Assembly: GCA_021812365.1 (NCBI GenBank)
Contig: JAKANQ010000001.1
Coordinates: 32,763 to 96,762 of the forward strand
Direction of reading: 5' to 3'
Origin: a bacterium
GTDB lineage: Bacteria > Patescibacteriota > Minisyncoccia > UBA6257 > GWB1-50-10
DNA length: 64,000 nucleotides
Of this stretch, positions 2,226 through 16,543 are shown piece by piece. A model generated the notes under the pieces. That model saw nothing but the letters and a program-made list of their open reading frames with translations, was not told the DNA's origin and made no database searches. How positions within the stretch are numbered: the stretch's first letter is position 1; the number at the start of each line of letters is the position of its first letter. The translations under genes and the position numbers were made by a program.

Positions 2226-2621
2226 CTAGTATCTTCGTAATCCAGTTTTATCCAATATTACCCGAACAGTTAAATAGCAAGCGGGATAAAGGATTACGGT
2301 ACCTGTGATGGTAAGCCAATTACTGGCGAAAACATCCGATCCCCAAATTAAACCAATAACAAAAAGGATTCCAAAATAAAGATAGTTGTATAGCACGCTA
2401 CCCAACATTCCCCAACGACCCAATACGGCTCTAACCGCTGCGATAATAAGTATCACCGCGAGTACCACGATAATTGATAACCAATGTGCCGACAGAAACG
2501 ACAACAAGGCATTCCACAACATGCGATATGCCTGCTTCGTTCCCTCATCAATAGCATTAAAAAACGCATCAAGCGTTTTCTTTGTAAACTCGGTTCCTGT
2601 CGCTGTGCTAGTAGAGTTCAT
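2226..2621 (-). CDS. Hypothetical membrane protein (~3 TM), last gene of the repressor/TIR operon
   Basis: Three hydrophobic segments; ATG (MNSTST) 8 nt after the TIR stop. Confidence 0.7.
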   Translation of the reverse strand: MNSTSTATGTEFTKKTLDAFFNAIDEGTKQAYRMLWNALLSFLSAHWLSIIVVLAVILIIAAVRAVLGRWGMLGSVLYNYLYFGILFVIGLIWGSDVFASNWLTITGTVILYPACYLTVRVILDKTGLRRY

Positions 2622-2629
2622 TTTTGAGA

Positions 2630-3181
2630 TTAAAACACATGACCCCAACTTAAATAAGTATCCTTGGAATAATAAGATAAGCCGCTTTTGGGAAGTTTAT
2701 TGAAATCAAATTGTGAAACTGCATCTGCTATTGGCTCTTTTTTGAAAGGTACATGAATAACCATAGCGGTTTTATTATTAATACGTTCAGTGAGAGCCTT
2801 TGGCCAAAGAGAAGATAAGGCGACAGGATCCATAATTCTTTCATAACCCGTGTATGCCGCAATGATTGGCATTTTACAGTTATCTACAGCGTGAGCTATT
2901 TCAAATGGAATCCAGTCTGTGTCTAGACGAGTCGTCGGACCGATAATCAATAGAAGATGTTTTGAATTATTCATCCTTTCTCTGAGCGCACGCCTCAAAG
3001 TTTCTTTGGTGCTTGAATCTCTAACATCACGTTTTTCGTGACTGTTTATAAATTTAAAATCTCCATCTTCATCTCTCACTTTCCACATTCGGAGCGTATT
3101 GTAATACTTCATGTCCGAATCTGTTGGATCTGAAGTATTGTTAGCATGAAATGCTACATATGTGCCGTTTCTATAGTTCAT
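2630..3181 (-). CDS. TIR-domain protein (ThsB-like)
   Basis: YRNGTYVAF beta-A strand, LRERMNNSKHLLLIIG, WIPFEI with the conserved catalytic Glu. Confidence 0.85.
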   Translation of the reverse strand: MNYRNGTYVAFHANNTSDPTDSDMKYYNTLRMWKVRDEDGDFKFINSHEKRDVRDSSTKETLRRALRERMNNSKHLLLIIGPTTRLDTDWIPFEIAHAVDNCKMPIIAAYTGYERIMDPVALSSLWPKALTERINNKTAMVIHVPFKKEPIADAVSQFDFNKLPKSGLSYYSKDTYLSWGHVF

Positions 3182-3183
3182 AG

Positions 3184-3786
3184 TTATTTCTCCTTTTGTT
3201 TTTTGTGGATCATTATCAGATATAAAATAATTGAGATCGAGAGAAGAATAAAAATAATTACATTAAGAAACGAACTGAGCGACAATCCGCTAATACAAGC
3301 GGCTTTAATTTCCCCGTATATTTTCGTAGCACTTATAGCAAGCAAGAGTAATGGGAAAATTATCGTATAAAGTGTCCACATCCAATCAGAAAAGATTGGG
3401 TATCGATCAAGATATGATTTTCCCTCTCGCGTAATGATGTCCTCGCCAGACTCCTTGTTTAGAGACTCCTCGATTTTATGGACGTAGGAATATTGTCTTT
3501 CAACAAAAACGGCTACTTGAAAATAGCGGATTGTGAAGATAAGCAAAAGAAACCATGCAATATTCCCTATAATAGCTAGATCTAATTTAAGATTTAAGCC
3601 AAATTTAAAATTTAAAAAATCATTAACTACAACATCGGATGTAATTGGAGAAATTATTTGAAAGGCCAAAAAACCAAGAGCGAGGACGACAAAAATCATT
3701 AAGCGATCACGCCTTTTCACACTCTCATTAATAATTGCACAAGTGTCTTTATAGTGATCGTAAATTATTGATATTTTTTCAGACAT
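3184..3786 (-). CDS. Uncharacterised 4-TM membrane protein, candidate defence effector
   Basis: Four hydrophobic helices in two pairs; translationally coupled between the two TIR genes. Confidence 0.7.
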   Translation of the reverse strand: MSEKISIIYDHYKDTCAIINESVKRRDRLMIFVVLALGFLAFQIISPITSDVVVNDFLNFKFGLNLKLDLAIIGNIAWFLLLIFTIRYFQVAVFVERQYSYVHKIEESLNKESGEDIITREGKSYLDRYPIFSDWMWTLYTIIFPLLLLAISATKIYGEIKAACISGLSLSSFLNVIIFILLSISIILYLIMIHKKQKEK

Positions 3787-4234
3787 ACCTACGAATAAAC
3801 TGGTTGGGATAAGGGGCTTCGTCGAGAGCCTTTAGTATGTTTGCTTCTGTAAACGAATATACCCAAGCGGCCCTTGATCCTAAAAGTTCTTCAGGAGATT
3901 CAAACGTTCTATCTAATTTAACTGCTGCGATTCGCTTACCAAGATCAATACTTTGCCGCACTTCGAAGTTTATCCAATTTTTATATCCAATGAGGCCACG
4001 ATTTCTGTGTGGGGAGTTTGCATGTTCACCAACAATCACGAGTGTATGAGTAGCATCTTTTATCTTGGATGTAAGCGCCGCCTTTATTCTTCCGACATTT
4101 GAGCTATTAATTTCTTCTGGAGTAGCATCGTCAAATACAAATTTGAACTTTGGATTTTCATTCCAAGCTTCGAGTAGGTATTTATAATGCTTGTCGTTGT
4201 CGTAATCAAAACTGACAAATACTGAAGGTTTCAT
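3779..4234 (-). CDS. TIR-domain protein (ThsB/MTH538 DUF1863-like)
   Basis: VFVSFDYDND, IKAALTSKIKDATHTLVIVG, NWINFEV (catalytic Glu). Confidence 0.88.
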   Translation of the reverse strand: MKPSVFVSFDYDNDKHYKYLLEAWNENPKFKFVFDDATPEEINSSNVGRIKAALTSKIKDATHTLVIVGEHANSPHRNRGLIGYKNWINFEVRQSIDLGKRIAAVKLDRTFESPEELLGSRAAWVYSFTEANILKALDEAPYPNQFIRRYV

Positions 4235-4245
4235 TTTGTGTTTGT

Positions 4246-4485
4246 TTAATTTTTCCTATCTTTCGGCGGATTCGGATCCTTGCCGTAGCTATCTTTATCA
4301 CTGATTTTGCCATCCTTGTTGTGAATGACATGCTCAACTCCTGCTTTTTTAGCTTCGCGAATAGATTTTTCTTCGGCAGTTTCTTTAGTGTGAGAAGAAG
4401 AAACAGGTTTTTGCTGACCCTCTTTCTTGGTTTCCCACATACCACGGTCGGAGTTATAAACCGTATGAATGTTCTTTTTTGACAT
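4246..4485 (-). CDS. DUF2188-family protein
   Basis: HTV...WETKKEG...TKETA...VIHNKDGKISDKDSYGKDP pattern typical of DUF2188. Confidence 0.85.
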   Translation of the reverse strand: MSKKNIHTVYNSDRGMWETKKEGQQKPVSSSHTKETAEEKSIREAKKAGVEHVIHNKDGKISDKDSYGKDPNPPKDRKN

Positions 4486-4487
4486 GG

Positions 4488-5147
4488 TTAACTTGATTTT
4501 GGTTTTTTAATTACGTCTACGACCTTTCCGCTGATCTGAAAATCATCTCCTCTGTGAACGAATATAGGCATGAATGTTTCGGTGGATTCAGACTCAAGCA
4601 CAATCTGATCGTGTTCTTTATCTTCCTTGTAGCGTTTAATGGTGCCCATGCCGTCGATAACCGCCACCACGATATCTCCATTTTTAGGATTCTTGTAGGT
4701 GCTATCAACCACGACAAAATCACCATCCTCAATGGTTGGACCATCGGGACGTACCTTCGCCAAATTCATAGACAGACCATCTGCAACGAGAACAAAGAGG
4801 TCCTGCTTCTTACGGGGTAGCATTTTAGCGGAAACCTTGAGGTATCCCTCTGTTCGACTTTCCGCGAATATGGTTGCTGGCCCGCAATTTGCAGCTCCCA
4901 CGATAGGAAGGGAGTAGAACAGGCTCTTAGCGGCTGATTTAAGGTTAAAGCCCCTGCTTACGGGCTTTATAACGCCCTTATCGAGGTTAACCTGCAATAA
5001 CCCAGCTTTTCCCAGCTGGATCAGGTGGTGTTTCACGATCTGGGGCTTGTTTTCCACCCCGATGAGTTTAGCGATTTGGCGATAGCTCAAAGACTCCAAA
5101 TTTTGATGTTTTGAGAGGTTTAATATTGCGGCCTGGATTTTATGCAT
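4488..5147 (-). CDS. LexA/CI-like repressor with S24 peptidase domain
   Basis: N-terminal wHTH (SYRQIAKLIG...HHLIQL), Cys-Gly cleavage site (ANCG), catalytic Ser (GLSM) and Lys (TIKR). Confidence 0.88.
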   Translation of the reverse strand: MHKIQAAILNLSKHQNLESLSYRQIAKLIGVENKPQIVKHHLIQLGKAGLLQVNLDKGVIKPVSRGFNLKSAAKSLFYSLPIVGAANCGPATIFAESRTEGYLKVSAKMLPRKKQDLFVLVADGLSMNLAKVRPDGPTIEDGDFVVVDSTYKNPKNGDIVVAVIDGMGTIKRYKEDKEHDQIVLESESTETFMPIFVHRGDDFQISGKVVDVIKKPKSS

Positions 5148-5153
5148 GCCTTA

Positions 5154-5182
5154 ATATTAGCATACTTTTTGGCTGTTTGCAA
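5154..5182 (-). promoter_or_regulatory. Sigma70-type promoter of the repressor/TIR operon (leaderless)
   Basis: TTGCAA-N17-TAATAT with extended TG, 6 nt before the ATG at 5147. Confidence 0.6.
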
Positions 5183-5209
5183 GCTCGTCCGTAAATAAGT
5201 TTTACACGG

Positions 5210-5237
5210 TTGACACTATCTCGGGTGGTTATATAAT
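5210..5237 (+). promoter_or_regulatory. Consensus sigma70 promoter of the rightward operon
   Basis: TTGACA (5210-5215)-N16-TATAAT (5232-5237), 6 nt before ATG 5244. Confidence 0.75.
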
Positions 5238-5243
5238 GGAACT

Positions 5244-5528
5244 ATGTCCATGCAAAAGGTCGGTGAAAATCGGTTTCTGTATCGTTGCCCTAAATGTGAT
5301 ATGCCTATGCTGGAAAAGGTGGGGTCTAAACTTCTCCTTTTGCAACACTACAAGGGGCAGCGTGTTAAAACCGAGATAGAACGGGATTTGATAGCTCCCA
5401 CCAACAAGCTCACTATTCGGTGCGGCTCATGTAAAGAAGGAGCACAAACGTTTCTTCACTTCACAGAAATAATCAGAATGGGAGAATCCACTTCGGCGAA
5501 AGTAGTTGAGGTAGGTAGCGTGGTATAA
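5244..5528 (+). CDS. Small zinc-ribbon protein (Com-like arrangement)
   Basis: Two CxxC pairs (RCPKC, RCGSC); divergent from the repressor. Confidence 0.65.
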   Translation: MSMQKVGENRFLYRCPKCDMPMLEKVGSKLLLLQHYKGQRVKTEIERDLIAPTNKLTIRCGSCKEGAQTFLHFTEIIRMGESTSAKVVEVGSVV

Positions 5529-5561
5529 TAGGAGCGTAGGTTAACAATTTAACAGAGCATC

Positions 5562-5627
5562 GTCTGGAACGCCCAGACATTCATCTATACCAAATGGTAT
5601 GGGTGCGTGTCTGGGCGTTTTTTGTTT
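5562..5627 (+). terminator. Intrinsic terminator / possible attenuator upstream of the MTase-terminase genes
   Basis: AACGCCCAGACA (5568-5579) pairs with TGTCTGGGCGTT (5608-5619), followed by a T-tract; alternative hairpin GTCTGG/CCAGAC. Confidence 0.6.
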
Positions 5628-5683
5628 ATCGAGTAAAGGTCGACGGTAAACATTCAAACGCCTCAACAAAAATAAACAAAAAC

Positions 5684-6976
5684 ATGAAACATCTAACTTG
5701 GCACAATGAAATAAGGAAAGTTAAGGACCTCATTCCCTGTGGTTCCAACCCACGCGTTATATCAGATAAAGAGCTTCGGGATCTTAAAAAAAGTATTAAG
5801 CGTTCAGGATATGCGGAGATTATCGCAATTGATGTTGATGGGGAAATTGTTGCAGGTAATCAGAGGCATCGCGCTCTTATGGAAATGGGTATGGGTGACA
5901 CAGAGGTAGATGTCCGGGCTCCGAGCCGTAAGCTCACAAAAGAAGAGTTCGATCGCTACCTTATAGCAAGCAACGCGCTTGGTGGCACTTGGGATTTTGA
6001 GAAGCTTAAATCGTTCAATCTCGATGAATTGATCGACATTGGATTCGATAAAAAAGAACTGGAGAATATTTGGACCGAAAATCTTGAGGTTGAAGATGAT
6101 GATTTTAACGAAACCGCTGAACTTAAAAAGATAAAGATTGCCAAAACCAAGCGCGGTGATTTAATCGCGCTTGGTCCTCATAAGCTTCTTTGCGGGGATT
6201 CTACCAAGCCTGAAACGCTCAAGCGGTTATTCGGGAAAGAACGCGCTTCTGTAATTTATAGCGACCCCGTTTATAATCTCCGTGGTGGTGTTGATTACAA
6301 CAAGGGCATCGGCGGCCGCGCAAATTATGGTGGCCATGTAAACGACACCCGCACCGACGATGAATACCGGGATTTTATTCGGAAAAGTCTTGAGTGCGCC
6401 CTTTCCGTGACTAAAGAAGATGCCCATGTCTTCTATTGGAACGACGAATCGAATATTTGGTTAATCCAAACCCTTTACCGTGAGCTAGGAATAGCGAACA
6501 AGCGCGTTTGTTTGTGGCTCAAGAACGGACAGAACCCGACTCCTGGCGTTGCATTCAATAAGTGCTATGAGCCATGCATTTACGGGGTTCGCGGAAAGCC
6601 ATATATCTCAAAGAACTTGCAGAACCTGAACGAGGTGATGAATAAGGAAATCACGACTGGCAACAGTCTCCTTGAAGAAACGCTTGATCACTTGGATGTG
6701 TGGATGGTAAGGCGTCTTTCTGGCAAAAGTTATGAACACGCCACGAGTAAACCAACCAAGCTTCACGAAAAAGCAATTCGGAGATGTACCTGTCCGGGTG
6801 AAATTATCTTGGATAGCTTTCTAGGCTCTGGCAGCACGTTAATCGCGGCCGAACAATTGAAGCGTCGCGTCTATGCCATCGAACTTGAGCCTATCTTCTG
6901 TGATCTTGCAATTAAACGGTATGAACGGCTCAGCGGGAAAAAGGCAAAAGTAATCCACCACTATGAAGAAGAATAA
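5684..6976 (+). CDS. ParB-like N-terminal domain fused to an N6-adenine/N4-cytosine (beta class) DNA methyltransferase
   Basis: NPR...IVAGNQRHRAL ParB motifs; DPVY (DPPY-like) followed by HATSKP and DSFLGSGST. Confidence 0.88.
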   Translation: MKHLTWHNEIRKVKDLIPCGSNPRVISDKELRDLKKSIKRSGYAEIIAIDVDGEIVAGNQRHRALMEMGMGDTEVDVRAPSRKLTKEEFDRYLIASNALGGTWDFEKLKSFNLDELIDIGFDKKELENIWTENLEVEDDDFNETAELKKIKIAKTKRGDLIALGPHKLLCGDSTKPETLKRLFGKERASVIYSDPVYNLRGGVDYNKGIGGRANYGGHVNDTRTDDEYRDFIRKSLECALSVTKEDAHVFYWNDESNIWLIQTLYRELGIANKRVCLWLKNGQNPTPGVAFNKCYEPCIYGVRGKPYISKNLQNLNEVMNKEITTGNSLLEETLDHLDVWMVRRLSGKSYEHATSKPTKLHEKAIRRCTCPGEIILDSFLGSGSTLIAAEQLKRRVYAIELEPIFCDLAIKRYERLSGKKAKVIHHYEEE

Positions 6977-7364
6977 AAAGCAAAGTGAATTTTTGGAGCA
7001 ACTCAAGAAGATTCCTATTGTTTCCGTAGCTGCGGAGAAAACCGGCCTCTCGCGCAACAGTATCTATCGTTGGAAGCGGGATGATAAGGAATTTGAGAAG
7101 ACCATGGAAGATGCTCTCGCAGAGGGCGAAGCCCTTATTAACGATATGAGTGAGAGCCAACTACTCTCGTTCATCAAGGATAAGAGTTGGCAAGCGGTGT
7201 CATTTTGGTTGCGTCACAGAAACCCGAAGTTCCGCGAGCGCGTGGAAGTAACGGCGAAAATTGAAAATATTGAGTCGCTCACGCCAGAACAAGAAGATAT
7301 TGTTCGGAAAGCATTAGAGCTTGAATCGCAGGAAAAAGAATTACCAAAAGAGATACAAGTATGA
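6963..7364 (+). CDS. Putative terminase small subunit (HTH)
   Basis: HTH (VSVAAEKTGLSRNSIYRW), AVSFWL motif; overlaps the large terminase start. Confidence 0.7.
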   Translation: MKKNKKQSEFLEQLKKIPIVSVAAEKTGLSRNSIYRWKRDDKEFEKTMEDALAEGEALINDMSESQLLSFIKDKSWQAVSFWLRHRNPKFRERVEVTAKIENIESLTPEQEDIVRKALELESQEKELPKEIQV

Positions 7365-8800
7365 ACCAAGACAAAATCCCACAAGATGTTGTGGATGCCA
7401 TGGTGAAGGATAGGAAGATACGGATCACAATAATCAAAAAAAGCTTTTGGTACTTTTTCCACTTCTACCTTCCTCACTACATAAGATACAAAACCGCGCC
7501 GTTCCACCGCGAAATGTTTTCGATTGCGGAGAATGAATCTGTGAAAACGGTAGTTATCGAGGCGTTCAGGAATTCCGCAAAAACAACCATCATGACGCTC
7601 GCATATCCAATTTGGGCTATCATTGGCTGTCAGCAAAAGAAGTTCATCGTCATTCTCGCGCAGACTCAGCAACAGGCACGCCAAATCCTCTCAAACATAA
7701 AACGTGAGATGGAATCTAATATGTTATTGCGCGCAGACTTGGGGCCATTCGAAGAGCCAGACGATGAATGGCGTGCGGTATCTTTGGTGATTCCACGATA
7801 CGGAGCGCGTATTACGGTCGCCTCCATAGACCAATCCGTGCGTGGATTGCGGCACGGCCCCTATCGGCCCGATCTCATTATTTGCGACGACTTAGAAGAC
7901 TTGGATTCCGTGAGGAGCCGCGATATGCGCGACAAGCTCTACGAATGGCTTGTGGGCGATATTATCCCCTTAGGAGATGTGAATACCAGGTTGATTGTCG
8001 TAGGTACGCGGCTCCACGAAGATTCACTCATTATGCGTCTTCGTAAGCTGATTAGTGAGAAAAGAGTAAATGGAATTGCGCGTACCTATCCGCTCATAGA
8101 CGGGCAAGGAAATATTGCGTGGCCTGGGAAATATCCCAATGAGGAAACGATTGAAAAAGAAAAGCAACGTGTGGGCGATGAACGCGCATGGCGCAGAGAG
8201 TATTGTTTGGAAATCGTGGGCGACACCGATCAGGTAATAGACCAAACATGGATTCATTACTACGACAATCTTCCGATTAAGAAGGGTGCATACATCACGC
8301 TTACCGCAATCGACCTCGCTATTTCCGAGTCAAATCGCGCTGACTATACCGCCATGGTTACTGCAAATATATACATCATAGATGGCCAGATTTACGTCTA
8401 TATTCTTGAGCCAATCGTGAACGAACGGCTCACATATCCGGATATACTGGAGCGCGCACAAATCGTCTATTCCGCTTTCCACAAAAGCGGAGGGGTCATT
8501 ATCGTTGAGGATGTAGGTTTCCAAAAGTCTCTCGTGCAAGATCTTGAAGCTATGGGATACAACGCAGTCTCGTTTAAACCGGGCGGTGCAGATAAGCGTA
8601 TGCGTCTATCCCTTACGGCGGGAATGGTAAAATCTGGCCATGTGTTATTTCCGCGAAAGGGTGCGGAACTTCTCATTGATCAGATTGTTCATTTAGGGCA
8701 AGAGAAGCACGACGATTTGGCGGACGCCTTTTCCATGTTGGTAATAAAATCGGAAACATACCGACCATATACAGCGAGTGATTTTGTCGTTCTCGTTTAA
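7361..8800 (+). CDS. Terminase large subunit-like ATPase/nuclease
   Basis: Walker A FRNSAKTT, Walker B LIICDDLED, GTRLHEDSL coupling motif, RNase H-fold acidic residues (AIDLA, HDDLADA). Confidence 0.88.
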   Translation: MNQDKIPQDVVDAMVKDRKIRITIIKKSFWYFFHFYLPHYIRYKTAPFHREMFSIAENESVKTVVIEAFRNSAKTTIMTLAYPIWAIIGCQQKKFIVILAQTQQQARQILSNIKREMESNMLLRADLGPFEEPDDEWRAVSLVIPRYGARITVASIDQSVRGLRHGPYRPDLIICDDLEDLDSVRSRDMRDKLYEWLVGDIIPLGDVNTRLIVVGTRLHEDSLIMRLRKLISEKRVNGIARTYPLIDGQGNIAWPGKYPNEETIEKEKQRVGDERAWRREYCLEIVGDTDQVIDQTWIHYYDNLPIKKGAYITLTAIDLAISESNRADYTAMVTANIYIIDGQIYVYILEPIVNERLTYPDILERAQIVYSAFHKSGGVIIVEDVGFQKSLVQDLEAMGYNAVSFKPGGADKRMRLSLTAGMVKSGHVLFPRKGAELLIDQIVHLGQEKHDDLADAFSMLVIKSETYRPYTASDFVVLV

Positions 8801-8811
8801 CTGCTGGCATT

Positions 8812-8850
8812 AAAACAAAACCACCGATATGTTCGGTGGCTTTGTTTTGG
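8812..8850. terminator. Bidirectional intrinsic terminator
   Basis: AAAACAAAA-CCACCGA/TCGGTGG-CTTTGTTTT between convergent genes. Confidence 0.7.
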
Positions 8851-8855
8851 TGTTT

Positions 8856-9494
8856 TTACCGATAGTCTTCAACAATCATCGTATAAGTGCCGATTGTATT
8901 GGCATCAATGTAGTATTCTCCAGCACCGTACTCAATCGTTTCATCCTTCACCGGACCCATTACATTCATAATCGCTCCGGCTAGTATTTTACCTTTGTAC
9001 AAAAATGCCTGACAAAAATCTCCGGTACAGTCATAACGAATCCGAAAACGCGAACCCGTTATAGTAAAGGGTTCAGATTTCTTCGCGCCGTTTCCGGAAA
9101 AGGTAAAGATTTGTTGGTACGATTTTCCGGGTTGAACCGCAACTGGTTGCGTACGTTCGGGGCTTGTCGGTTGCTGATTATTAACGGTCTTACTCGCCTC
9201 GGGTGACGGCGTATTGTTCTGAGAAATCTCCGCGCCACCGTTCTTCGCTATGAAGACCCCGGCCAAAATAACCAGAATTATAATCGCCAAGATTCTAACC
9301 CCACTCGACAACTCATGCTTAATCCTACCCTCAATGATTTTGTTTATCGGCGGAATCGAAATTGTCGAGGCAACAATAAAGAGAAACCCAGCAAGTGTGT
9401 TGCTTGCTATATTAGCGATTCCCGTAATGAGCAGTATCACGCCAACCAACCATCCAAGAATCAAACCAACGGTTATTTTTTTGTTTTCGTTCAT
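8856..9494 (-). CDS. Hypothetical membrane-anchored protein (3 TM, P/S/T-rich linker, small beta-rich C-terminal domain)
   Basis: ORF track; hydrophobic N-terminus, low-complexity linker. Confidence 0.75.
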   Translation of the reverse strand: MNENKKITVGLILGWLVGVILLITGIANIASNTLAGFLFIVASTISIPPINKIIEGRIKHELSSGVRILAIIILVILAGVFIAKNGGAEISQNNTPSPEASKTVNNQQPTSPERTQPVAVQPGKSYQQIFTFSGNGAKKSEPFTITGSRFRIRYDCTGDFCQAFLYKGKILAGAIMNVMGPVKDETIEYGAGEYYIDANTIGTYTMIVEDYR

Positions 9495-9528
9495 ATGTTT
9501 TTAGTTGAGTCTTGTTCGACCTTGAAGT

Positions 9529-9710
9529 GCTGGCTAGAAACACAAAGCTGCTAGCCAGCGGTCCCTTGCGGAACCCATACTCCTTTCGGAATATGACCAT
9601 CCCTGGTGTTCTGACTAGCAGCTCTCTACCAGGGATGGATTTAGAACCGTGCCGCCGGATTACTCCGATGGGTTAGGTTCCGCCTTACAGCTAGTAAGGC
9701 TATTCAGTTG
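9529..9710 (-). ncRNA. Candidate structured cis-regulatory RNA in the 5' leader of 8856..9494
   Basis: Six adjacent hairpins, three capped by GNRA tetraloops (GUAA, GAAA, GCAA) on the minus strand, plus a 13-nt loop/stem complementarity. Confidence 0.65.
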
Positions 9711-9844
9711 TAAATTGATTTTAACGCATTTCGACCTTTGATTCTATACCCCTATCACAAACCATTGTTTTTGCTAAGCCGGACCATCGACACGTTGTCG
9801 ACAACTTAGCTTTACTTCCCCGACCAGTCTGTCATCCATTAAAT

Positions 9845-11164
9845 ATGGATAAAGAACAAAGGACAGGACTTATCGGCAATCCAGCTGTAGTTCCTATAAT
9901 AAAGGTCAGATATTGCTTATATGCTAGAAAGTCGACCGAACAGGACGAGAAACAAGCCCTTTCGATAGACTCACAGATAAAAGAAATGCTAGCCATCGCT
10001 GAACGCGATGAATTGGAAATAGTCGATATTCGCAGAGAAGCTCATTCAGCTAAAGATTCGGGGCAGAGACTAGTGTTCAAGGAATTATTAGAGGATATAC
10101 GACGAGGGAGATATAACGGAATTCTTACCTGGGCACCCGATCGGTTAAGCAGAAACGCAGGAGATTTAGGAAGTGTGGTTGATCTAATGGATCAAAAATC
10201 GCTTATCGAAATTCGGACTTATGGTCAACAATTCAGAAATTCTCCAAATGAAAAGTTCTTACTAATGATTTTATGCAGTCAGGCAAAACTGGAGAACGAC
10301 AATAAAAGTATCAATGTAAAACGTGGATTAAAGACAAGAGTTGAAATGGGTTTATGGCCAGCCCCAGCTCCAACGGGATATTTAAAAGAAAAGCGGATGG
10401 ATAGAAAATGTGAAACTCTTATTGACCCAGCCAGAGCGCCAGTCATCAAACAGGTGTTTGAAAAAGTTGCTTATGAAAAATGGAGTGGTCGGAAAGTTTA
10501 TAACTGGCTCAAATTCGATCTTAACTTTAAGACGGCTACTGGGAACAAGAATCTCACATTAGGGAATGTGTATATGATTCTTCAAAATCATTTCTATTAT
10601 GGAACTTTTGAATATCCTAAAAATAGCGGCAATTGGTATAAAGGAAAACATGAGCCGATCATAACTAAGGAACTGTTTGATGCGGTTCAAAACCAGGTCA
10701 AAAGCCAATTCATACGATCCGAGAGTAAGGAATTTGCTTTTACTAAATTAATGACCTGCGGCCTATGTGGATCAGGCATAACGGCCGATGAGAAGTTCAA
10801 AAAGCAGAAAAATGGGAATGTTCACCGTCACGTTTACTACGGGTGTACGAAAGTACGAGATAGAGATTGTAAATGTGGGTATATCAACGAGGTTGACCTC
10901 CTAAAACAATTTGAGAAACTTATTGAAAAAATAGATATCGACGAAATCGGAATCAAGGAGAAAATCAAAACTGAGGTTGAGCGGTTTAAGAAATTTCAGC
11001 AAGTAGTTCTCGGATCTAAGAAAAAGATTGTAGTTGCCGATATAGACATAAGAAATTATGCGAAGTACATCCTTAGGGAAAGCAAGGATATAGAGAAAAG
11101 AGAACTTCTAGGATGCCTTAGAAGTAAGATTATTTTAAATAATAAGCAAATCACCATTTCTTAA
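9845..11164 (+). CDS. Large serine recombinase (resolvase + recombinase + Zn ribbon)
   Basis: YARKST catalytic Ser, DRLSRN, APTGY, GKHEPII, CGLCG...YYGC...C. Confidence 0.92.
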   Translation: MDKEQRTGLIGNPAVVPIIKVRYCLYARKSTEQDEKQALSIDSQIKEMLAIAERDELEIVDIRREAHSAKDSGQRLVFKELLEDIRRGRYNGILTWAPDRLSRNAGDLGSVVDLMDQKSLIEIRTYGQQFRNSPNEKFLLMILCSQAKLENDNKSINVKRGLKTRVEMGLWPAPAPTGYLKEKRMDRKCETLIDPARAPVIKQVFEKVAYEKWSGRKVYNWLKFDLNFKTATGNKNLTLGNVYMILQNHFYYGTFEYPKNSGNWYKGKHEPIITKELFDAVQNQVKSQFIRSESKEFAFTKLMTCGLCGSGITADEKFKKQKNGNVHRHVYYGCTKVRDRDCKCGYINEVDLLKQFEKLIEKIDIDEIGIKEKIKTEVERFKKFQQVVLGSKKKIVVADIDIRNYAKYILRESKDIEKRELLGCLRSKIILNNKQITIS

Positions 11165-11257
11165 TGAACTACTCTCTTGCGGTATCAAAAAAATCATTGA
11201 ATTTAAGGGGTCTACTGAGCTTTCCCGGGGACGAATTGAATAGTATAATCAAACAAA

Positions 11258-14200
11258 ATGTCGGACACATTACTTAAAGTAGTTCCAAAACAGCGGAAAT
11301 ACTATCAGGATAAAGCTAATAGCCTGAGGCTACTTGCGGCAAAAGAATTGAGAGATGCCTTTTTGGCCTCCTATGATGAGGATATCTCTCGAAAAACTGT
11401 TTCCGAGTCTTGTTTGGCTGAGTATATTGATACCTTTCCCGATCAAGACTCAGTAAAAACTTTTGCCTTTAATCTTTTAATAAACAATAAAGCTATAGAC
11501 GACTTACTGAAGGGATATGATCCGATAGAAATATCATATGTTGGCTCTTATATAGGAGAGGCAACCTACAGATCCTTTATCAGTCCAACTGATATTTCTC
11601 GAGTAATGGATTTCTTGGCACCATCAAAGGCTATTGGGTATTTTTTCACACCACCGGAGGTAGCATTCTTAATGGCCGATAAAATAATATCTTCTACTGA
11701 CAAAAGTATTGATATCCTAGATCCGAGTGCTGGATACGGTTCGCTATTAGTCGCGTCCTTAATAGTAGCAAAGAATAAAGGGGCAAAATTTAGTTCTGTA
11801 ACCGCAATTGAAGTTGATTCATTTACCTCAAAGAATTTAAAAAAGATTCTTGAAAGAGTTGTCGAGCTATTAGAATTTGATACAAAGCTAAATATTATCA
11901 ATGAAAATGCCATAGGATATTTAGCCAATAGTTTAAACGGTTTATTCGGTCGCCCTGCAAGATTTCAAAAAATCATAATGAATCCACCCTATGGGAGGGT
12001 GAAGTTTTTGAAAAACTTTTTAACAAACAAAGAAACTAGAACCTCTAGCGCTTTATTATCTCACGAAGAACAAGGGATAAAAATAAAAACAAAAGTAGAA
12101 AAGCTAACAAGAGAATTAGATATCATTTCACAAAAGCTCGGTTTCGATTCCAACGTAAGAGAGTACTCGAAATTATTTGTTGCATTAAGCCTCTCAAACT
12201 TAGCTCCCGACGGCCGGATGAGCGTGATTACCCCAAGTACTTGGCTTGGTGATGTTGAGTCGTATGACTTAAGGAAATTAATCATTAACAACTCATACCT
12301 AGAGCAAATTTTACTTTTCCCTGAAGACAGCGGCTTATTCGAAACCGTGAATCAACACACGGCAGTCAGTATCTTGTCTAAACAAGAAAAGGAAATGTTC
12401 GAGATTGTATCCGATTACAATTTGAATGTAAAATTTAGCAGGTCAAACAAGGTTTACTACGCCGATATTAAAAAAAATAATCCACAGGGATTAAAAATCC
12501 CGAAGCATGGCTCGGAGCATGATGAAATCATTTCCAAAATTCAACAACATAAACCGATCCGGCTAATTGAAAACTTAAAGAACCTTAGGGGAGAAATAGA
12601 TCTCTCCTTAAACAAGGATCTAGTATCCAACAAAGACACTGGCCGTCGATTAATCAGAGGCGATCACGTGGAAAGGTACATACTGCATCCGACGACAAAA
12701 TCTAAACGAGATGGATTCATTGAAGAAAGTAGGCTTGGCGAGAAGTTTCGATCACTTCCTAAATTTAAAGATAGTTTAAATTTCAGAATTGTTGGACGCC
12801 AAGTTTCTTACTTAGATAAAAAGAGGCGCTTAGATTTTTGCCTTATTGATCCTGATAGTTTTGTGAGTAATTCTTGCAACTACCTTTACTTTAAGTCTGA
12901 CGACGGCCAAAAAAAACCGAGCAGAAAGTTACTATCTTTATTGGGGATATTAAATAGCTCTGTTCTTGAATGGTATTTCAGGCTTTACAATAGCAACAAC
13001 CATGTCGCTAACTACGAGATAGCAAATTTTCCAGTCTGCTTAGATAGTGAATTTATTCCGCTAATAGCGAAATCTACGGAATTTCTTATCGGGGCATATA
13101 AAGAAGAATCACGGGATGAATCTGTTTCTGGCATAGAAGATTTCCACGATGCCTTGGTTGGCGTGGCGTATGATCTTACGCCAATAATGATCGGTACTAT
13201 TATGGAGTCAATTGACCCCAAAAGAAAAGGTAGGGTTGTAAATTTTGCGGAACACATATGTGAAGGTAATCTACCTCTCGATTTTATGAAGAGCGATCAT
13301 TGGTTTAATCATTATGTCTCAACGCTGTCTGATTTAGACCAAGAGATAATTAAACATGTTCCCCAAGGAGGAAATTGGCAAGATATTCCCGAGGAAGTTC
13401 CTTCTCAAAGGCTACGGCAGATACGTGAAATGTCGAAAGAGCGCGGTGTTGTGCGAACTACCTATTATGGAAGACTAAGACCGGATCAACCATCATATAC
13501 CATTGCTACGTACTATAATCGTCCCGGTAATGGAACAAACATTCATCCATGGGAAGACAGGACGATTTCTTCGCGTGAAGCGGCAAGACTCCAATCTTTT
13601 CCCGATAGTTATATTTTCTTTGGATCTGAAGGCGGTATTAGAACTCAGATAGGAAATGCCGTCCCTCCGCTACTTGCTTATTCATTGGGAAAGCATATCG
13701 GAAGCCGCTATGGCTTTGGCACCTGCGTTGACGCCTTTGCCGGTGCCGGTGGTCTAAGTTGTGGATTAGAGCTTGCTGGCTGGAAAGTGATTGCGGCTAA
13801 CGACAATGATAAACACGCCTCAATAACTTACCGGGCGAATAGGCCCACGGAAAAGACGCCGACTAGTGATGACAAAAAGACTTTCTTTGTAGAGGGAGAT
13901 ATTAACAATAAGAAAATTTGGGAAGAACTTTTATCAGGAATCAAAAAGAAGCTCGGCAATAAAGAATTAGATCTGCTAGTAGGTGGCCCACCGTGCCAAG
14001 GGTTTTCCCACGCTGGATTCAGAAGAGAGGATGATATACGCAACGACCTAGCCTCTATATATTTGAAGCTAGCAATTAAGCTAAGTCCTAAGACCTTTAT
14101 TCTTGAAAATGTAGAGGGACTTCTCACATACAATTCCGGACAGGTAGTAAAGGATATCATTGAGGCTTTGACGGATATCGGCTATCACGTTGAAGCTCCA

Positions 14201-14521
14201 TGGGTACTTAACGCAGAGCAATTTGGCGTACCTCAAATGCGAAGACGAGTATTGATTGTTGCGAATAGAAAAGAAATTGTGCCAAATATGCCAAACTTAT
14301 TTCGCAAATGTGCTGGTCGACGTTCTGGAAAGGTTATTGAGCAACTACACTTAGCACCTCCCGTGACTGCGGGAGAGGCTCTTATAGATCTACCACCGCT
14401 AAAGAAAAGAAGATTTCTAAAGGGAATTAATGATATTAACAAATTGTATTCCCAATGGTTAAAAGGGCTAATTAGCGCTGAGAGATTCCTAGAATCGCGA
14501 TCTAAGATAAGGGAATCGTAG
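11258..14521 (+). CDS. Bifunctional DNA methyltransferase: m6A (gamma) domain fused to a circularly permuted m5C domain
   Basis: DPSAGYG and NPPY; then REAARLQSFPD and QIGNAVPP (motifs IX, X) precede DAFAGAGG (I), GGPPCQGFS (IV), ENV (VI), QMRRR (VIII). Confidence 0.92.
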   Translation: MSDTLLKVVPKQRKYYQDKANSLRLLAAKELRDAFLASYDEDISRKTVSESCLAEYIDTFPDQDSVKTFAFNLLINNKAIDDLLKGYDPIEISYVGSYIGEATYRSFISPTDISRVMDFLAPSKAIGYFFTPPEVAFLMADKIISSTDKSIDILDPSAGYGSLLVASLIVAKNKGAKFSSVTAIEVDSFTSKNLKKILERVVELLEFDTKLNIINENAIGYLANSLNGLFGRPARFQKIIMNPPYGRVKFLKNFLTNKETRTSSALLSHEEQGIKIKTKVEKLTRELDIISQKLGFDSNVREYSKLFVALSLSNLAPDGRMSVITPSTWLGDVESYDLRKLIINNSYLEQILLFPEDSGLFETVNQHTAVSILSKQEKEMFEIVSDYNLNVKFSRSNKVYYADIKKNNPQGLKIPKHGSEHDEIISKIQQHKPIRLIENLKNLRGEIDLSLNKDLVSNKDTGRRLIRGDHVERYILHPTTKSKRDGFIEESRLGEKFRSLPKFKDSLNFRIVGRQVSYLDKKRRLDFCLIDPDSFVSNSCNYLYFKSDDGQKKPSRKLLSLLGILNSSVLEWYFRLYNSNNHVANYEIANFPVCLDSEFIPLIAKSTEFLIGAYKEESRDESVSGIEDFHDALVGVAYDLTPIMIGTIMESIDPKRKGRVVNFAEHICEGNLPLDFMKSDHWFNHYVSTLSDLDQEIIKHVPQGGNWQDIPEEVPSQRLRQIREMSKERGVVRTTYYGRLRPDQPSYTIATYYNRPGNGTNIHPWEDRTISSREAARLQSFPDSYIFFGSEGGIRTQIGNAVPPLLAYSLGKHIGSRYGFGTCVDAFAGAGGLSCGLELAGWKVIAANDNDKHASITYRANRPTEKTPTSDDKKTFFVEGDINNKKIWEELLSGIKKKLGNKELDLLVGGPPCQGFSHAGFRREDDIRNDLASIYLKLAIKLSPKTFILENVEGLLTYNSGQVVKDIIEALTDIGYHVEAPWVLNAEQFGVPQMRRRVLIVANRKEIVPNMPNLFRKCAGRRSGKVIEQLHLAPPVTAGEALIDLPPLKKRRFLKGINDINKLYSQWLKGLISAERFLESRSKIRES

Positions 14522-16082
14522 TAGAATCGCTGAGGATAGAAAAAACTTGGCGTAACTTTTTGCTTAGAGCAGAGTACTTCTTAGAATCAATTTTCTTTGA
14601 TCGCAAGCCTGAGATATTGCTTTCTCTTTTTGTGCTAGAAACATTTGTTTTCATAGCCCTGTCCCAATTCTTCATATCTGGTGACAGAGGTATTTTCTTT
14701 GCTTCGGCAACAACCGCATCAATTTCGCCACTAAAGTTATCTACGTAGATCTTACGCACCTTCCTATCAACAATGGACTTATCTTGATAAAGCATAAGTT
14801 CTTCGAACGCTATGCGAATTATTCTGTTCGAAAGACTATTGCGAAGCTTAGTATTGATTGGCGTTTTACTAAAGCTTGCAAAGGTTAGGTCACTAGAATT
14901 AAGTTTGTCGAACTTAACTCTGAACAGCGCATATTCTGGATGGAGTATCGTCGTTAGATATTCTGAATAACCGTTCTCGAAAAGAGAGTAAAGCGTTCTA
15001 AGATAGAAGTCTTGCATCGCCCTCATGTAGTCACTCAACTCTTTGGCATCCCTATCGTTTTTGACCAAAAACTTGTACTTATCCCACAATGGTTGCACTT
15101 GCCAACTAGCCACAGATTCATTTGTGCGTTTTTCATAGTCAATTAATATCTTTATATCGCTTAAAAACATTCTGCGATTCTTACTACTATTACAAGGTCC
15201 GCAAGTTGGGAGAAATAAAGGAAGCTGTTTAAATCCACAAGCTAAAGGACCAACATGATCTGGACTTATTTTCTTAAGCTTTTTGCCGCATATGTAACAC
15301 CTTCCGGCGCCAGCGGAATTATATAGCGCGTCAGCGATCAGCCAATCGCCGTCAGACCATAATTCAAAAACCCTTCTATCGTGAAGATAAGATTTAAGGT
15401 TTTCGGGCGATCTTCCGGGGTCTTTTGTAGCTCTGCATAAGTGGCAATAGTCATGGAAACCATCTAAGCGATCTGGTGGATTGCACATGAAACCGGGACT
15501 CAGATAGACTGAACGAATATAATTACTTTTCTCAAAAGCTTCTTTGGAAAAACCAAATTTATTAAAGAAATCAGCTCTTTCGGGAAAAATCTTTTCTAGG
15601 CGCTCTTCAATCTGCTTTTTATTTTCGATTCCGCCAAGAATTTTGATCGCCTCGTCAATAGGCATCTTTTTTGAGAATAGAGAAGTTTTTGTTTCTCTGT
15701 TTAGATATTCTGTAAATACGTGATTGAGATAGAAATAGCCGACGTTTTGCGATTTCCCGCATAGACGACAAGGTCTATAGCCTGTGGGGCTAATCAACCT
15801 CGCCGTTATACTAAAACGATCATCAGAATTTCCTTTTCCCGGAACTTTAAGACTGTTCGCCTTTTTAACCCACCACTCAAAGCGCTCTACGTAATATTTG
15901 TAAAAAGAGGTTGATTTGCCAGAGCTGACTTGCCAATTTATTTTCCCATTTTCAGATATGGCGTTAGGCATTCCTTTGAAGTTGGGGTGTTTAACAATAA
16001 GGCCCATGTAATCAATGTAATTTTGATGGGCCTGATATTTCCCTCTGCCGTAAACTGGTTTTGCCATTTCCTTCACTTCCAT
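14502..16082 (-). CDS. Alw26I/Eco31I/Esp3I-family type IIS restriction endonuclease
   Basis: CRLCG, SPGFMCNPPDRLDGFH, DRRVFELWSDGDW, HNH-like CxxC...DHVGP...CxxCN; convergent with the dual MTase. Confidence 0.85.
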   Translation of the reverse strand: MEVKEMAKPVYGRGKYQAHQNYIDYMGLIVKHPNFKGMPNAISENGKINWQVSSGKSTSFYKYYVERFEWWVKKANSLKVPGKGNSDDRFSITARLISPTGYRPCRLCGKSQNVGYFYLNHVFTEYLNRETKTSLFSKKMPIDEAIKILGGIENKKQIEERLEKIFPERADFFNKFGFSKEAFEKSNYIRSVYLSPGFMCNPPDRLDGFHDYCHLCRATKDPGRSPENLKSYLHDRRVFELWSDGDWLIADALYNSAGAGRCYICGKKLKKISPDHVGPLACGFKQLPLFLPTCGPCNSSKNRRMFLSDIKILIDYEKRTNESVASWQVQPLWDKYKFLVKNDRDAKELSDYMRAMQDFYLRTLYSLFENGYSEYLTTILHPEYALFRVKFDKLNSSDLTFASFSKTPINTKLRNSLSNRIIRIAFEELMLYQDKSIVDRKVRKIYVDNFSGEIDAVVAEAKKIPLSPDMKNWDRAMKTNVSSTKRESNISGLRSKKIDSKKYSALSKKLRQVFSILSDSTTIPLS

Positions 16083-16185: not shown

Positions 16186-16283
16186 TTGAATACGGCACTC
16201 AGCCGGTATGCTATGGACTGTATGGAGTGCTCTCGCTCTTCGGCTTGATCCACGCTTCTCGAGCGGGATAACCTATCACGAGT

Positions 16284-16338
16284 TGGCTGGGGGACTAGGA
16301 ATCGGACCTAGATTCACGGCTTCAAAGGCCGCTGTCCT
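16284..16338 (-). repeat. 3' portion of tRNA-Gln (from A21 through encoded CCA)
   Basis: 16286-16338 is identical to 16386-16438 (exact 100-bp offset); ends in CCA. Confidence 0.9.
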
Positions 16339-16386
16339 GTCGCTCGCGCAGTGAGGAAATAAATACATGAACATTTCTATGCATTG

Positions 16387-16457
16387 CTGGGGGACTAGGA
16401 ATCGGACCTAGATTCACGGCTTCAAAGGCCGCTGTCCTACCATTAGACGATCCCCCA
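16387..16457 (-). tRNA. tRNA-Gln(TTG), complete inner copy without encoded CCA
   Basis: TGGGGGATCGTCTAATGGTAGGACAGCGGCCTTTGAAGCCGTGAATCTAGGTCCGATTCCTAGTCCCCCAG folds as a cloverleaf with anticodon TTG. Confidence 0.92.
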
Positions 16458-16522: not shown

Positions 16523-16543
16523 CTACCATTAGACGATCCCCCA
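16523..16543 (-). repeat. 5' portion (21 nt) of tRNA-Gln
   Basis: TGGGGGATCGTCTAATGGTAG, identical to 16437-16457; preceded by a TTTACA-N17-TAAAGT promoter-like sequence. Confidence 0.85.

Follow-up and report, generated by a model that had tools for sequence, protein, structure and literature searches.

A conserved gene pair of a TIR protein and a four-helix membrane protein as a candidate Thoeris-type system in Patescibacteria and other prokaryotes

Gene cassette and the TIR-1/4-TM pair

A 64,000-nucleotide stretch of contig JAKANQ010000001.1 (assembly GCA_021812365.1, a patescibacterial genome), hereafter the window, carries a cassette in which two TIR domain proteins (TIR-1 and TIR-2) alternate with small membrane proteins of four and three predicted transmembrane (TM) segments (the 4-TM and 3-TM proteins). 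Here, we analyze this cassette and, in particular, the pair formed by TIR-1 and the 4-TM protein, which is a candidate Thoeris-type anti-phage system. The six-gene operon reported in the first-pass annotation of the window was confirmed on the minus strand (Table 1), with gaps of 2, 11, -8, 2 and 8 nt in order from the LexA gene to the 3-TM gene. A divergent 12/12 match to a sigma-70 promoter is located at 5210-5237. The GC content of the five cassette genes is 33-41%, compared with 47% in the whole genome (626 kb, 98% complete), and the loci nearest to the window cassette are mostly Patescibacteria records.

Table 1. Genes of the operon and remainder of the likely integrated element (positions in the window)
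Feature	Position	Strand	Description
LexA-like repressor	4488-5147	minus	219 aa; Peptidase_S24 E 9.5e-22; heads operon
DUF2188 protein (PADLOC PDC-S16)	4246-4485	minus	79 aa; PF09954 E 8.7e-14; PDC-S16 E 3.9e-23
TIR-1, ThsB-like	3779-4234	minus	151 aa; PF08937 E 6.7e-11; PADLOC ThsB1 E 2.3e-14
4-TM protein	3184-3786	minus	200 aa; no family above cut-off
TIR-2, type II-class ThsB	2630-3181	minus	183 aa; PF08937 E 7.1e-16
3-TM protein	2226-2621	minus	131 aa from ATG, 140 aa from TTG at 2648; no family
Likely integrated element, remainder	5244-16082	plus	zinc-ribbon gene, ParB-methyltransferase, small and large terminase-like genes, serine recombinase, restriction-modification pair (second gene of the pair on the minus strand)

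A scan of genome contigs for the 4-TM gene confirmed 108 stretches and returned 79 loci; near-duplicates (L017/L018, L047/L049, L019/L021 and L074/L079) are retained in the counts given here. In 66 of the 79 loci, which are distributed over many phyla, the 4-TM gene has a TIR-1 homolog (E<1e-20) no more than 150 nt away. Among the 13 remaining loci, L041 has TIR-1 approximately 550 nt upstream and L056 has a TIR-1 gene split by the contig end. In seven others the next gene encodes a TIR of another family (PF10137 in L032, L037 and L038; PF13676 in L029, L065, L066 and L070; the families in L037, L038 and L070 were assigned by clustering with scanned proteins). L050, L061 and L067 have no upstream DNA, and L060 has no TIR. 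Some TIR is therefore present in 75 of the 79 loci, and TIR-1 adjoins the 4-TM gene in all 15 viral loci (several of them redundant), which bears out the co-occurrence that the first-pass annotation had left to be checked. In a reciprocal search, the 4-TM gene was the next gene in 5/5 viral TIR-1 loci.

Both orders of the two genes occur, and TIR-1 is doubled in L074/L079. As a background, any PF08937 match was found in 8 of 70 Bacillus-group genomes (one genome of this group was unscored) and in 68 of 301 Bacteroidota genomes; the pair is present in 2 of the 8 Bacillus-group genomes having a ThsB match. Pairwise distances of TIR-1 and 4-TM sequences were correlated (Spearman 0.53 over 61 pairs, five loci having been dropped as duplicates or truncated), with a maximum of 0.27 in 999 shuffles. 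No other neighbor cluster recurred with the pair across phyla, and no CBASS, Pycsar, Argonaute or Avs gene was detected in the window cassette by PADLOC and Pfam scans. The conserved unit consists of two genes, TIR-1 and 4-TM.

Several features of individual loci were also observed. The pair occurs on phage or prophage contigs (L144-L148 and L179-L193), in L144-L147 beside terminase-like genes, and in L146/L147 it is followed by an additional gene for a 349-aa TIR-like protein. A DUF7701 gene immediately precedes the pair in L054, L075 and L076 and precedes the lone 4-TM gene in L060. In Neobacillus (L032/L037/L038), the 4-TM gene is followed by a gene for a CAP12/Pycsar-type TIR of 335-344 aa with an unassigned C-terminal domain, and TIR-1 is missing. 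L062 has a SLATT gene and other small genes near the pair, which suggests a multi-effector TIR island.

TIR-1 has Phe6 and, in the motif WINFEV, Glu91 at the catalytic position. This Glu is kept in 69/69 homologs. As had been noticed at first pass, both TIRs of the cassette retain the catalytic residue: the Glu of WINFEV and that of WIPFEI in TIR-2 align in one column with the Glu of 19 other TIRs. In most loci TIR-1 is a bare PF08937 domain of 140-150 aa, i.e., it has the form of ThsB, and it also matches PADLOC PDC-M50B (E 2.7e-9). In a quick tree of 81 TIR rows, in which about 24 TIRs from 4-TM loci were sampled, TIR-1 groups apart from the TIRs linked to SIR2-SLOG, and its nearest outside relatives (33-42% identity) are encoded beside DUF4231/SLATT and TPR-S proteins. 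Because these outside TIRs adjoin SLATT and TPR-S effectors, canonical cyclic ADP-ribose (cADPR) is a first guess for the TIR-1 signal; by analogy this is a weak pointer to its product. Types VII and VIII Thoeris use canonical cADPR (Yirmiya et al. 2025, 10.64898/2025.12.03.692087). TIR-1 is the predicted sensor and signal synthase, and a core gene of the unit.

The 4-TM protein as a candidate effector

A single-sequence search detected 149 relatives of the 4-TM protein, and a profile search detected 884 clusters (50% identity) at E<=1e-3 and 664 at 1e-10. The family is spread over Patescibacteria, Bacillota, Bacteroidota, Pseudomonadota, Chloroflexota, Cyanobacteria, archaea and phages. No relatives were found in PLSDB plasmids (with a Bacillus query) or in GenBank phages. 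The window protein had nothing above cut-off in PADLOC, Pfam or NCBIfam, and scans of 114 and 141 family members showed no consistent family among the 25 best listed of 54 and of 159 Pfam families, respectively.

Hydropathy analysis placed four segments at residues 30-48, 68-86, 136-154 and 176-194. The AlphaFold2 model (pLDDT 88.4, pTM 0.82) is all-helical; two long helices (3-45 and 70-113) protrude from the membrane and are followed by a short helix (121-125) and two further helices (130-166 and 170-194). The protein was initially described as almost purely membrane, a description that has to be revised: residues 1-28 and 87-135 (77 of 200) are soluble helices and contain 24 of the 33 columns whose conservation among 215 sequences reaches 70% or more. 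In the opposite, outward loops, 1 of 37 columns reaches this level in the same set. Near-invariant residues are H11, Y12, R26, Y88, Q90, Y99, Y101, E106, R120, E121, G122 and Y125, and judging from their chemistry they would suit the binding of a phosphorylated nucleotide. The Lys/Arg content is 0.20 at the N-terminus, 0.13 in the middle part and 0.43 at the C-terminus, compared with 0.09 and 0.04 in the opposite loops. Because of this bias, the N-terminus, the middle part and the C-terminus are predicted to be cytoplasmic (N-in/C-in). Conserved residues on a predicted cytoplasmic helical extension are the pattern that would be expected of a ligand-gated pore.

Foldseek found no match of the model in the PDB at E<=0.001, the VIA-align hits in the PDB were generic helical bundles (best Z 9.8, rmsd 6.3, 162 residues aligned), and neither a BFVD fold search nor a profile search of PDB sequences gave a clear match. 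In the PADLOC and Foldseek checks that had been proposed at the outset, the 4-TM protein matched no described effector above cut-off; TIR-1 and the DUF2188 protein match known PADLOC families (ThsB1 and PDC-S16). Since the 4-TM protein is linked to TIRs across phyla and no described effector model matches it above cut-off, the earlier proposal of an effector role is retained, and it is the best predicted candidate for the effector.

In our view, the pair is likely a Thoeris-type anti-phage system in which the 4-TM protein would be a new membrane effector, a signal-gated pore. This reading is based on the gene pairing, the intact TIR Glu, the four hydrophobic helices and the conservation in residues 1-28 and 87-135. 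In the proposed mechanism, infection would switch on TIR-1, which would convert NAD+ to an ADP-ribose derivative. A 4-TM oligomer would bind this signal between its cytoplasmic helices and would then open or destabilize the membrane; the cell would be arrested or killed and the infection aborted. We infer the oligomerization, the signal, the abortive infection and the defense function; the ligand pocket would lie between 4-TM subunits by analogy with the models of ThsF, ThsG and ThsH (Yirmiya et al. 2025).

It should be noted that several points weigh against this reading. L060 carries no TIR although DNA is present on both sides of its 4-TM gene, and shared ancestry alone would be expected to give some correlation of distances. 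In the quick tree, the clade of TIR-1 sequences linked to the 4-TM gene has an SH-aLRT support of 81, and it joins TIRs located beside TPR-S, SLATT and an unassigned 194-aa protein with a support of 92. The 4-TM protein has no clear fold match, and its pore and ligand pocket are analogies. In addition, 15 of 30 operons were verified by Yirmiya et al. (2025), who cautioned that the TIRs of some putative types may be NAD-depleting effectors.

This caution applies to a different arrangement, in which the 4-TM protein would serve as a sensor or membrane anchor and TIR-1 would be a toxic NADase: contact with a phage would cluster TIR-1, and NAD+ would be drained with no diffusible signal. The pairing of the 4-TM protein with TIR_2 or CAP12-type TIR proteins in 7 loci is in its favor, and in L032/L037/L038 the neighboring TIR belongs to the CAP12/Pycsar effector class, which also speaks against a signaling pair. 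However, the outward loops are the least conserved, and conserved Arg, His, Tyr and Glu abound in the cytoplasmic part. TIR-1 is a PF08937 domain of the ThsB type, and an exchange among unrelated TIR families would be easier to explain by a small molecule than by a protein interface. We regard a toxic TIR-1 as quite unlikely.

TIR-2, exchangeable neighbors and the carrying element

TIR-2 has Tyr8 and Glu94 (WIPFEI), the site of type II TIRs that generate histidine-ADP-ribose (His-ADPR); TIR-1 has Phe in place of this Tyr. It matches EcThsB2 (PDB 8V6T, E 8.9e-15) and falls within the Macro-linked TIR clade (22 rows, SH-aLRT 99). A Macro ThsA adjoins the TIR in 10 of these, and another 8 show no recognized effector neighbor, so orphan Tyr-type TIRs do exist. 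These eight (L125, L130, L133 and L163-L167) come from Bacteroidota-phylum genomes, several of them in a constant housekeeping context.

TIR-2 was found behind the 4-TM gene in only four loci: the window, L134, L001 and L004. In 4/4 it is intact and starts 2-11 nt after the 4-TM gene. It is 91% identical to its counterpart in L134 and matches those in L001 and L004 with E of 1e-107 and 3e-104; in L001 and L004 it is followed by different genes. No close relatives were found in 400 other genomes of its own phylum or in viral contigs. Thus, TIR-2 is an accessory gene, a later addition confined to one sub-lineage.

One possibility is that TIR-2 is the orphan of a type II system that lost its TM-Macro effector, or is otherwise independent, with no link to the 4-TM protein. 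Among 426 ThsB proteins the Tyr site was found only in systems with a TM-Macro effector and was tied to His-ADPR (Shi 2024, PMC11204291), and both the Macro neighbors and the eight effector-free rows of the clade agree with such an origin. No Macro protein was found in the window genome by tblastn. A profile search with Macro (PF20016) was also blank in the genomes of the window, L001 and L004, but its positive controls were silent too. On the other hand, TIR-2 is intact within 2-11 nt of the 4-TM gene in every one of its loci and is highly conserved even where the following genes differ. An orphan is possible but the less probable case, and we lean slightly toward TIR-2 feeding the 4-TM protein, which would give this effector two sensors. 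The suggestion that one of the two TIRs could be the signal receptor was not supported: since the Glu is present in both and the class of TIR-2 is one that makes signals, neither looks like a receptor.

A further, speculative extension is that the 4-TM protein is an uncatalogued ligand-gated pore, perhaps a distant relative of 8xMP (see below), opened by both a cADPR-type signal from TIR-1 and a His-ADPR-type signal from TIR-2. We consider this unlikely. If true, a Tyr-type TIR would for the first time be read by an effector that lacks a Macro domain, and one pore, carried by elements of small-genome Patescibacteria and by phages, would work as an OR gate and evade phage sponges with specificity for a single signal.

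The first-pass annotation had treated the four genes from TIR-1 to the 3-TM gene as one system. In such a system both TIRs and both membrane proteins would act together, perhaps with a two-subunit membrane effector. The order of the four genes is kept in L134 and the gaps are tight. However, besides the restriction of TIR-2 to one sub-lineage, the 3-TM gene occurs in none of the 79 4-TM loci, including the TIR-2 carriers L001 and L004. Its homologs were found in 10 loci, with a TIR nearby in 2 and unrelated genes preceding them in 8. A four-gene system is therefore very unlikely. The 3-TM protein shows three hydropathy segments, the third at threshold, and had nothing above cut-off in PADLOC, Pfam and NCBIfam; its gene is a passenger of the element and stands outside the TIR system.

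The DUF2188 gene is directly upstream of TIR-1 in 8 of the 79 loci. Members of this family were reported in regulator-led putative defense operons (Lau et al., 10.1101/2022.04.27.489752), and DUF2188 was called a putative Thoeris effector (Yirmiya et al. 2025). It could be a second effector here, and it is dispensable to the TIR-1/4-TM pair. The sister cassette in L134 (82% DNA identity) consists of LexA, TIR-1, 4-TM, TIR-2 and 3-TM genes and lacks DUF2188. L135 (3107-5381 for the cassette part) has LexA, DUF2188, a PDC-M50A-like membrane protein, a different ThsB, a gene for a 237-aa protein and the 3-TM gene; by eye the 237-aa protein looks E2-like, with no family match. From the gene orders in L134 and L135, a slot for exchangeable TIR cassettes can be bounded by LexA/DUF2188 and by the 3-TM gene. 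We assign LexA, DUF2188 and the 3-TM gene to the carrying element.

The LexA-like protein also matches NCBIfam TIGR00498 (E 4.7e-25), under the cut-off of that model, and a second LexA paralog (49%) is encoded in the same genome (contig C11, 21604-22254). The stretch to the right of the cassette, up to the restriction-modification pair and tRNA-Gln (16386-16457, minus strand), is a likely integrated element. No att repeat pair enclosing it was found, the best match being 14 bp (E 0.28). This near-palindromic match (13/14) lies at 2155-2168 and 16251-16264, just beyond both ends of the element, and may be a serine-recombinase site, although alone it is not significant. The 3' 52 nt of tRNA-Gln are repeated 100 bp downstream (16287-16338), and a second copy of approximately 20 nt from its 5' end lies upstream (16524-16543); these partial repeats are possible integration scars.

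An element of this kind, with a LexA-like repressor, a ParB-methyltransferase, terminase-like genes and a serine recombinase, recurs in Patescibacteria (window 4488-11164; L001-L010, L134, L135 and L137). It has exchangeable defense cargo, and no capsid gene was seen in it. A literature search gave no description of this recurring LexA/ParB-methyltransferase element. In the window, a 212-aa membrane protein with three N-terminal helices, a soluble C-terminal domain and no family match is encoded between the terminase and the recombinase (8856-9494, minus strand). The stretch 11258-16082 contains a fused adenine/cytosine methyltransferase of 1087 aa (PADLOC MTase_II E 1.3e-296; Alw26I/Eco31I/Esp3I-like, slightly below the NCBIfam cut-off), and the 526-aa gene facing it, which has a His-Asn-His-like motif, probably encodes its endonuclease.

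Comparison with known systems

Two general properties of Thoeris were found in the cassette: both TIRs score above the PF08937 cut-off and keep the catalytic Glu, and TIR-1 has a conserved adjoining candidate effector gene (66/79 genomic and 15/15 viral loci). The first-pass statement that the cassette contains no recognizable ThsA effector was upheld. Searches of the 626-kb genome by tblastn with 18 effector queries found no relatives of Macro, SIR2-SLOG, caspase, SLATT, TPR-S, PDC-M50A-like or DUF2270 proteins; the sole hit was marginal (E 0.01, 53 residues, on another contig), and the 16 of 18 queries for which controls were tallied were all positive on fetched loci. SIR2-SLOG ThsA (type I) was detected neither in the cassette nor in the genome by tblastn; a PF18185 profile search of the genome was blank, and its positive controls were silent too. 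TM-Macro ThsA (type II) was not detected in the cassette, and tblastn of the genome gave nothing beyond the E 0.01 fragment. Type IV's caspase-like effector was found neither in the cassette scans nor by tblastn in the genome. However, the assumption that known effectors comprise only these three classes is out of date, as a screen of approximately 600 million proteins catalogued 29 effectors, several of them TM proteins, and the effectors of the validated types V and VII are membrane-only (Yirmiya et al. 2025).

Type V (ThsB with ThsF/DUF2270; signal 3'cADPR) resembles the pair in combining a bare TIR with a small all-helical membrane effector that has no enzyme or known ligand-binding domain and in which a charged cytoplasmic portion is the proposed binding site of the signal. 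ThsF, however, has three TM helices and PF10028, whereas the window protein has four helices. PF10028 was not among the 25 best-listed families for 114 or 141 4-TM members, and because no PF10028 match is listed the 4-TM protein is not ThsF by Pfam. An hhalign comparison of the 4-TM protein with DUF2270 gave 3.2%, out of register, with shallow profiles that gave only 1.0% for a likely related control pair (PDC-M50A-like and DUF2270), so a remote relationship to DUF2270 is possible. Type VII (ThsB with the SLATT protein ThsH; cADPR) also has a membrane effector, and TIR-1 is close to SLATT-linked TIRs. No Pfam SLATT/DUF4231 match was found for the window 4-TM protein or among the listed families, whereas true SLATT neighbors match at E<1e-9; PADLOC RTasSLATT was touched by 5 of 141 members (best E 0.006). 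Type VIII (ThsB with the CMP-hydrolase-TPR protein ThsI; cADPR) is similar in that TIR-1 is close to TPR-S-linked TIRs, but the 4-TM protein has no hydrolase or TPR domain.

PADLOC PDC-M50 (A, a small membrane protein; B, a TIR) likewise joins a TIR with a small membrane protein, and a PDC-M50A-like cassette fills the slot in L135. PDC-M50A-like proteins differ in having 130-150 aa and 2-3 helices. PDC-M50A did not match the window 4-TM protein or the 114 or 141 members, whereas the controls L104 and L106 matched at E<1e-15; hhalign of 4-TM and PDC-M50A-like profiles gave 0.3%, to be read against shallow profiles and a control pair at only 1.0%. One weak PF10028 match and an in-register, low-scoring alignment suggest that the PDC-M50A-like proteins may be ThsF.

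A weak, near full-length similarity was seen to Pfam 8xMP (PF24838, 'RipA family octameric membrane protein'). The L044 ortholog matched it with E 5.5e-4 and 21 bits (cut-off 30 bits) over profile positions 3-133 of 136, and 5 of 141 members matched, all below cut-off (best E 3.1e-5). The nearest named ESM Atlas clusters of the 4-TM protein are 8xMP at 0.76-0.81, below the lead threshold, and hhalign with one true 8xMP member gave 0.6% (again with shallow profiles and a control pair at only 1.0%). The 4-TM protein is at most a distant relative of 8xMP.

No description of the TIR-1/4-TM pair was found in open full text (figures and bioRxiv supplements lie beyond this coverage) or in the accessible parts of Wang et al. 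2024 (PMC11350192), PMC13069673, PMC13712596, PMC13434031 and Sabonis et al. Nevertheless, the pair may well have been catalogued already by Yirmiya et al. (2025), either as an untested TM effector or as ThsJ of the validated type IX. Their screen was very large and listed several TM effectors, and since the pair is present in 2 of 8 Bacillus-group genomes with a ThsB match, it was within reach of that screen and in the genus of type IX. Type IX (ThsB with ThsJ, from Bacillus cereus VD021) is also a two-gene TIR system and comes from the same Bacillus group as the pair. The only members listed for the Bacillus 4-TM cluster, however, are B. cereus ACH27, B. pseudomycoides and one without a name; VD021, where a more distant homolog is possible, is not among them. 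The type IX TIR makes 3'cADPR (Yirmiya et al. 2025), whereas TIR-1 lies apart from SIR2-SLOG-linked TIRs, although the product need not follow the tree. ThsF is disfavored as a catalogued identity by the lack of PF10028 among the listed families. That the 4-TM protein is specifically ThsJ is doubtful. An earlier cataloguing would be compatible with the Thoeris-type pair and bears on its novelty only.

With type II (TM-Macro ThsA/ThsC with a Tyr-type ThsB; His-ADPR; Shi 2024, PMC11204291; Sabonis 2024, 10.1101/2024.01.03.573942) the cassette shares the Tyr8/Glu site and clade of TIR-2, and the type II effector acts on the membrane, as predicted for the 4-TM protein. It differs in that the 4-TM protein has no Macro domain, that no such domain was found in the genome and that TIR-2 is accessory. 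TIR-2 beside the 4-TM gene departs from the published rule, by which TM-Macro effectors are the sole partners of Tyr-type TIRs, and it allows a test of whether one effector reads two signals; the Bacillus ortholog of the pair is directly testable in B. subtilis. To our knowledge, each new Thoeris effector has to date brought either a new receptor fold or new chemistry of the signal. The logic of a TIR signal that opens a membrane effector is already known, and what may be new here is a widespread candidate effector family that has no model in the searched libraries and no recognizable ligand-binding domain.

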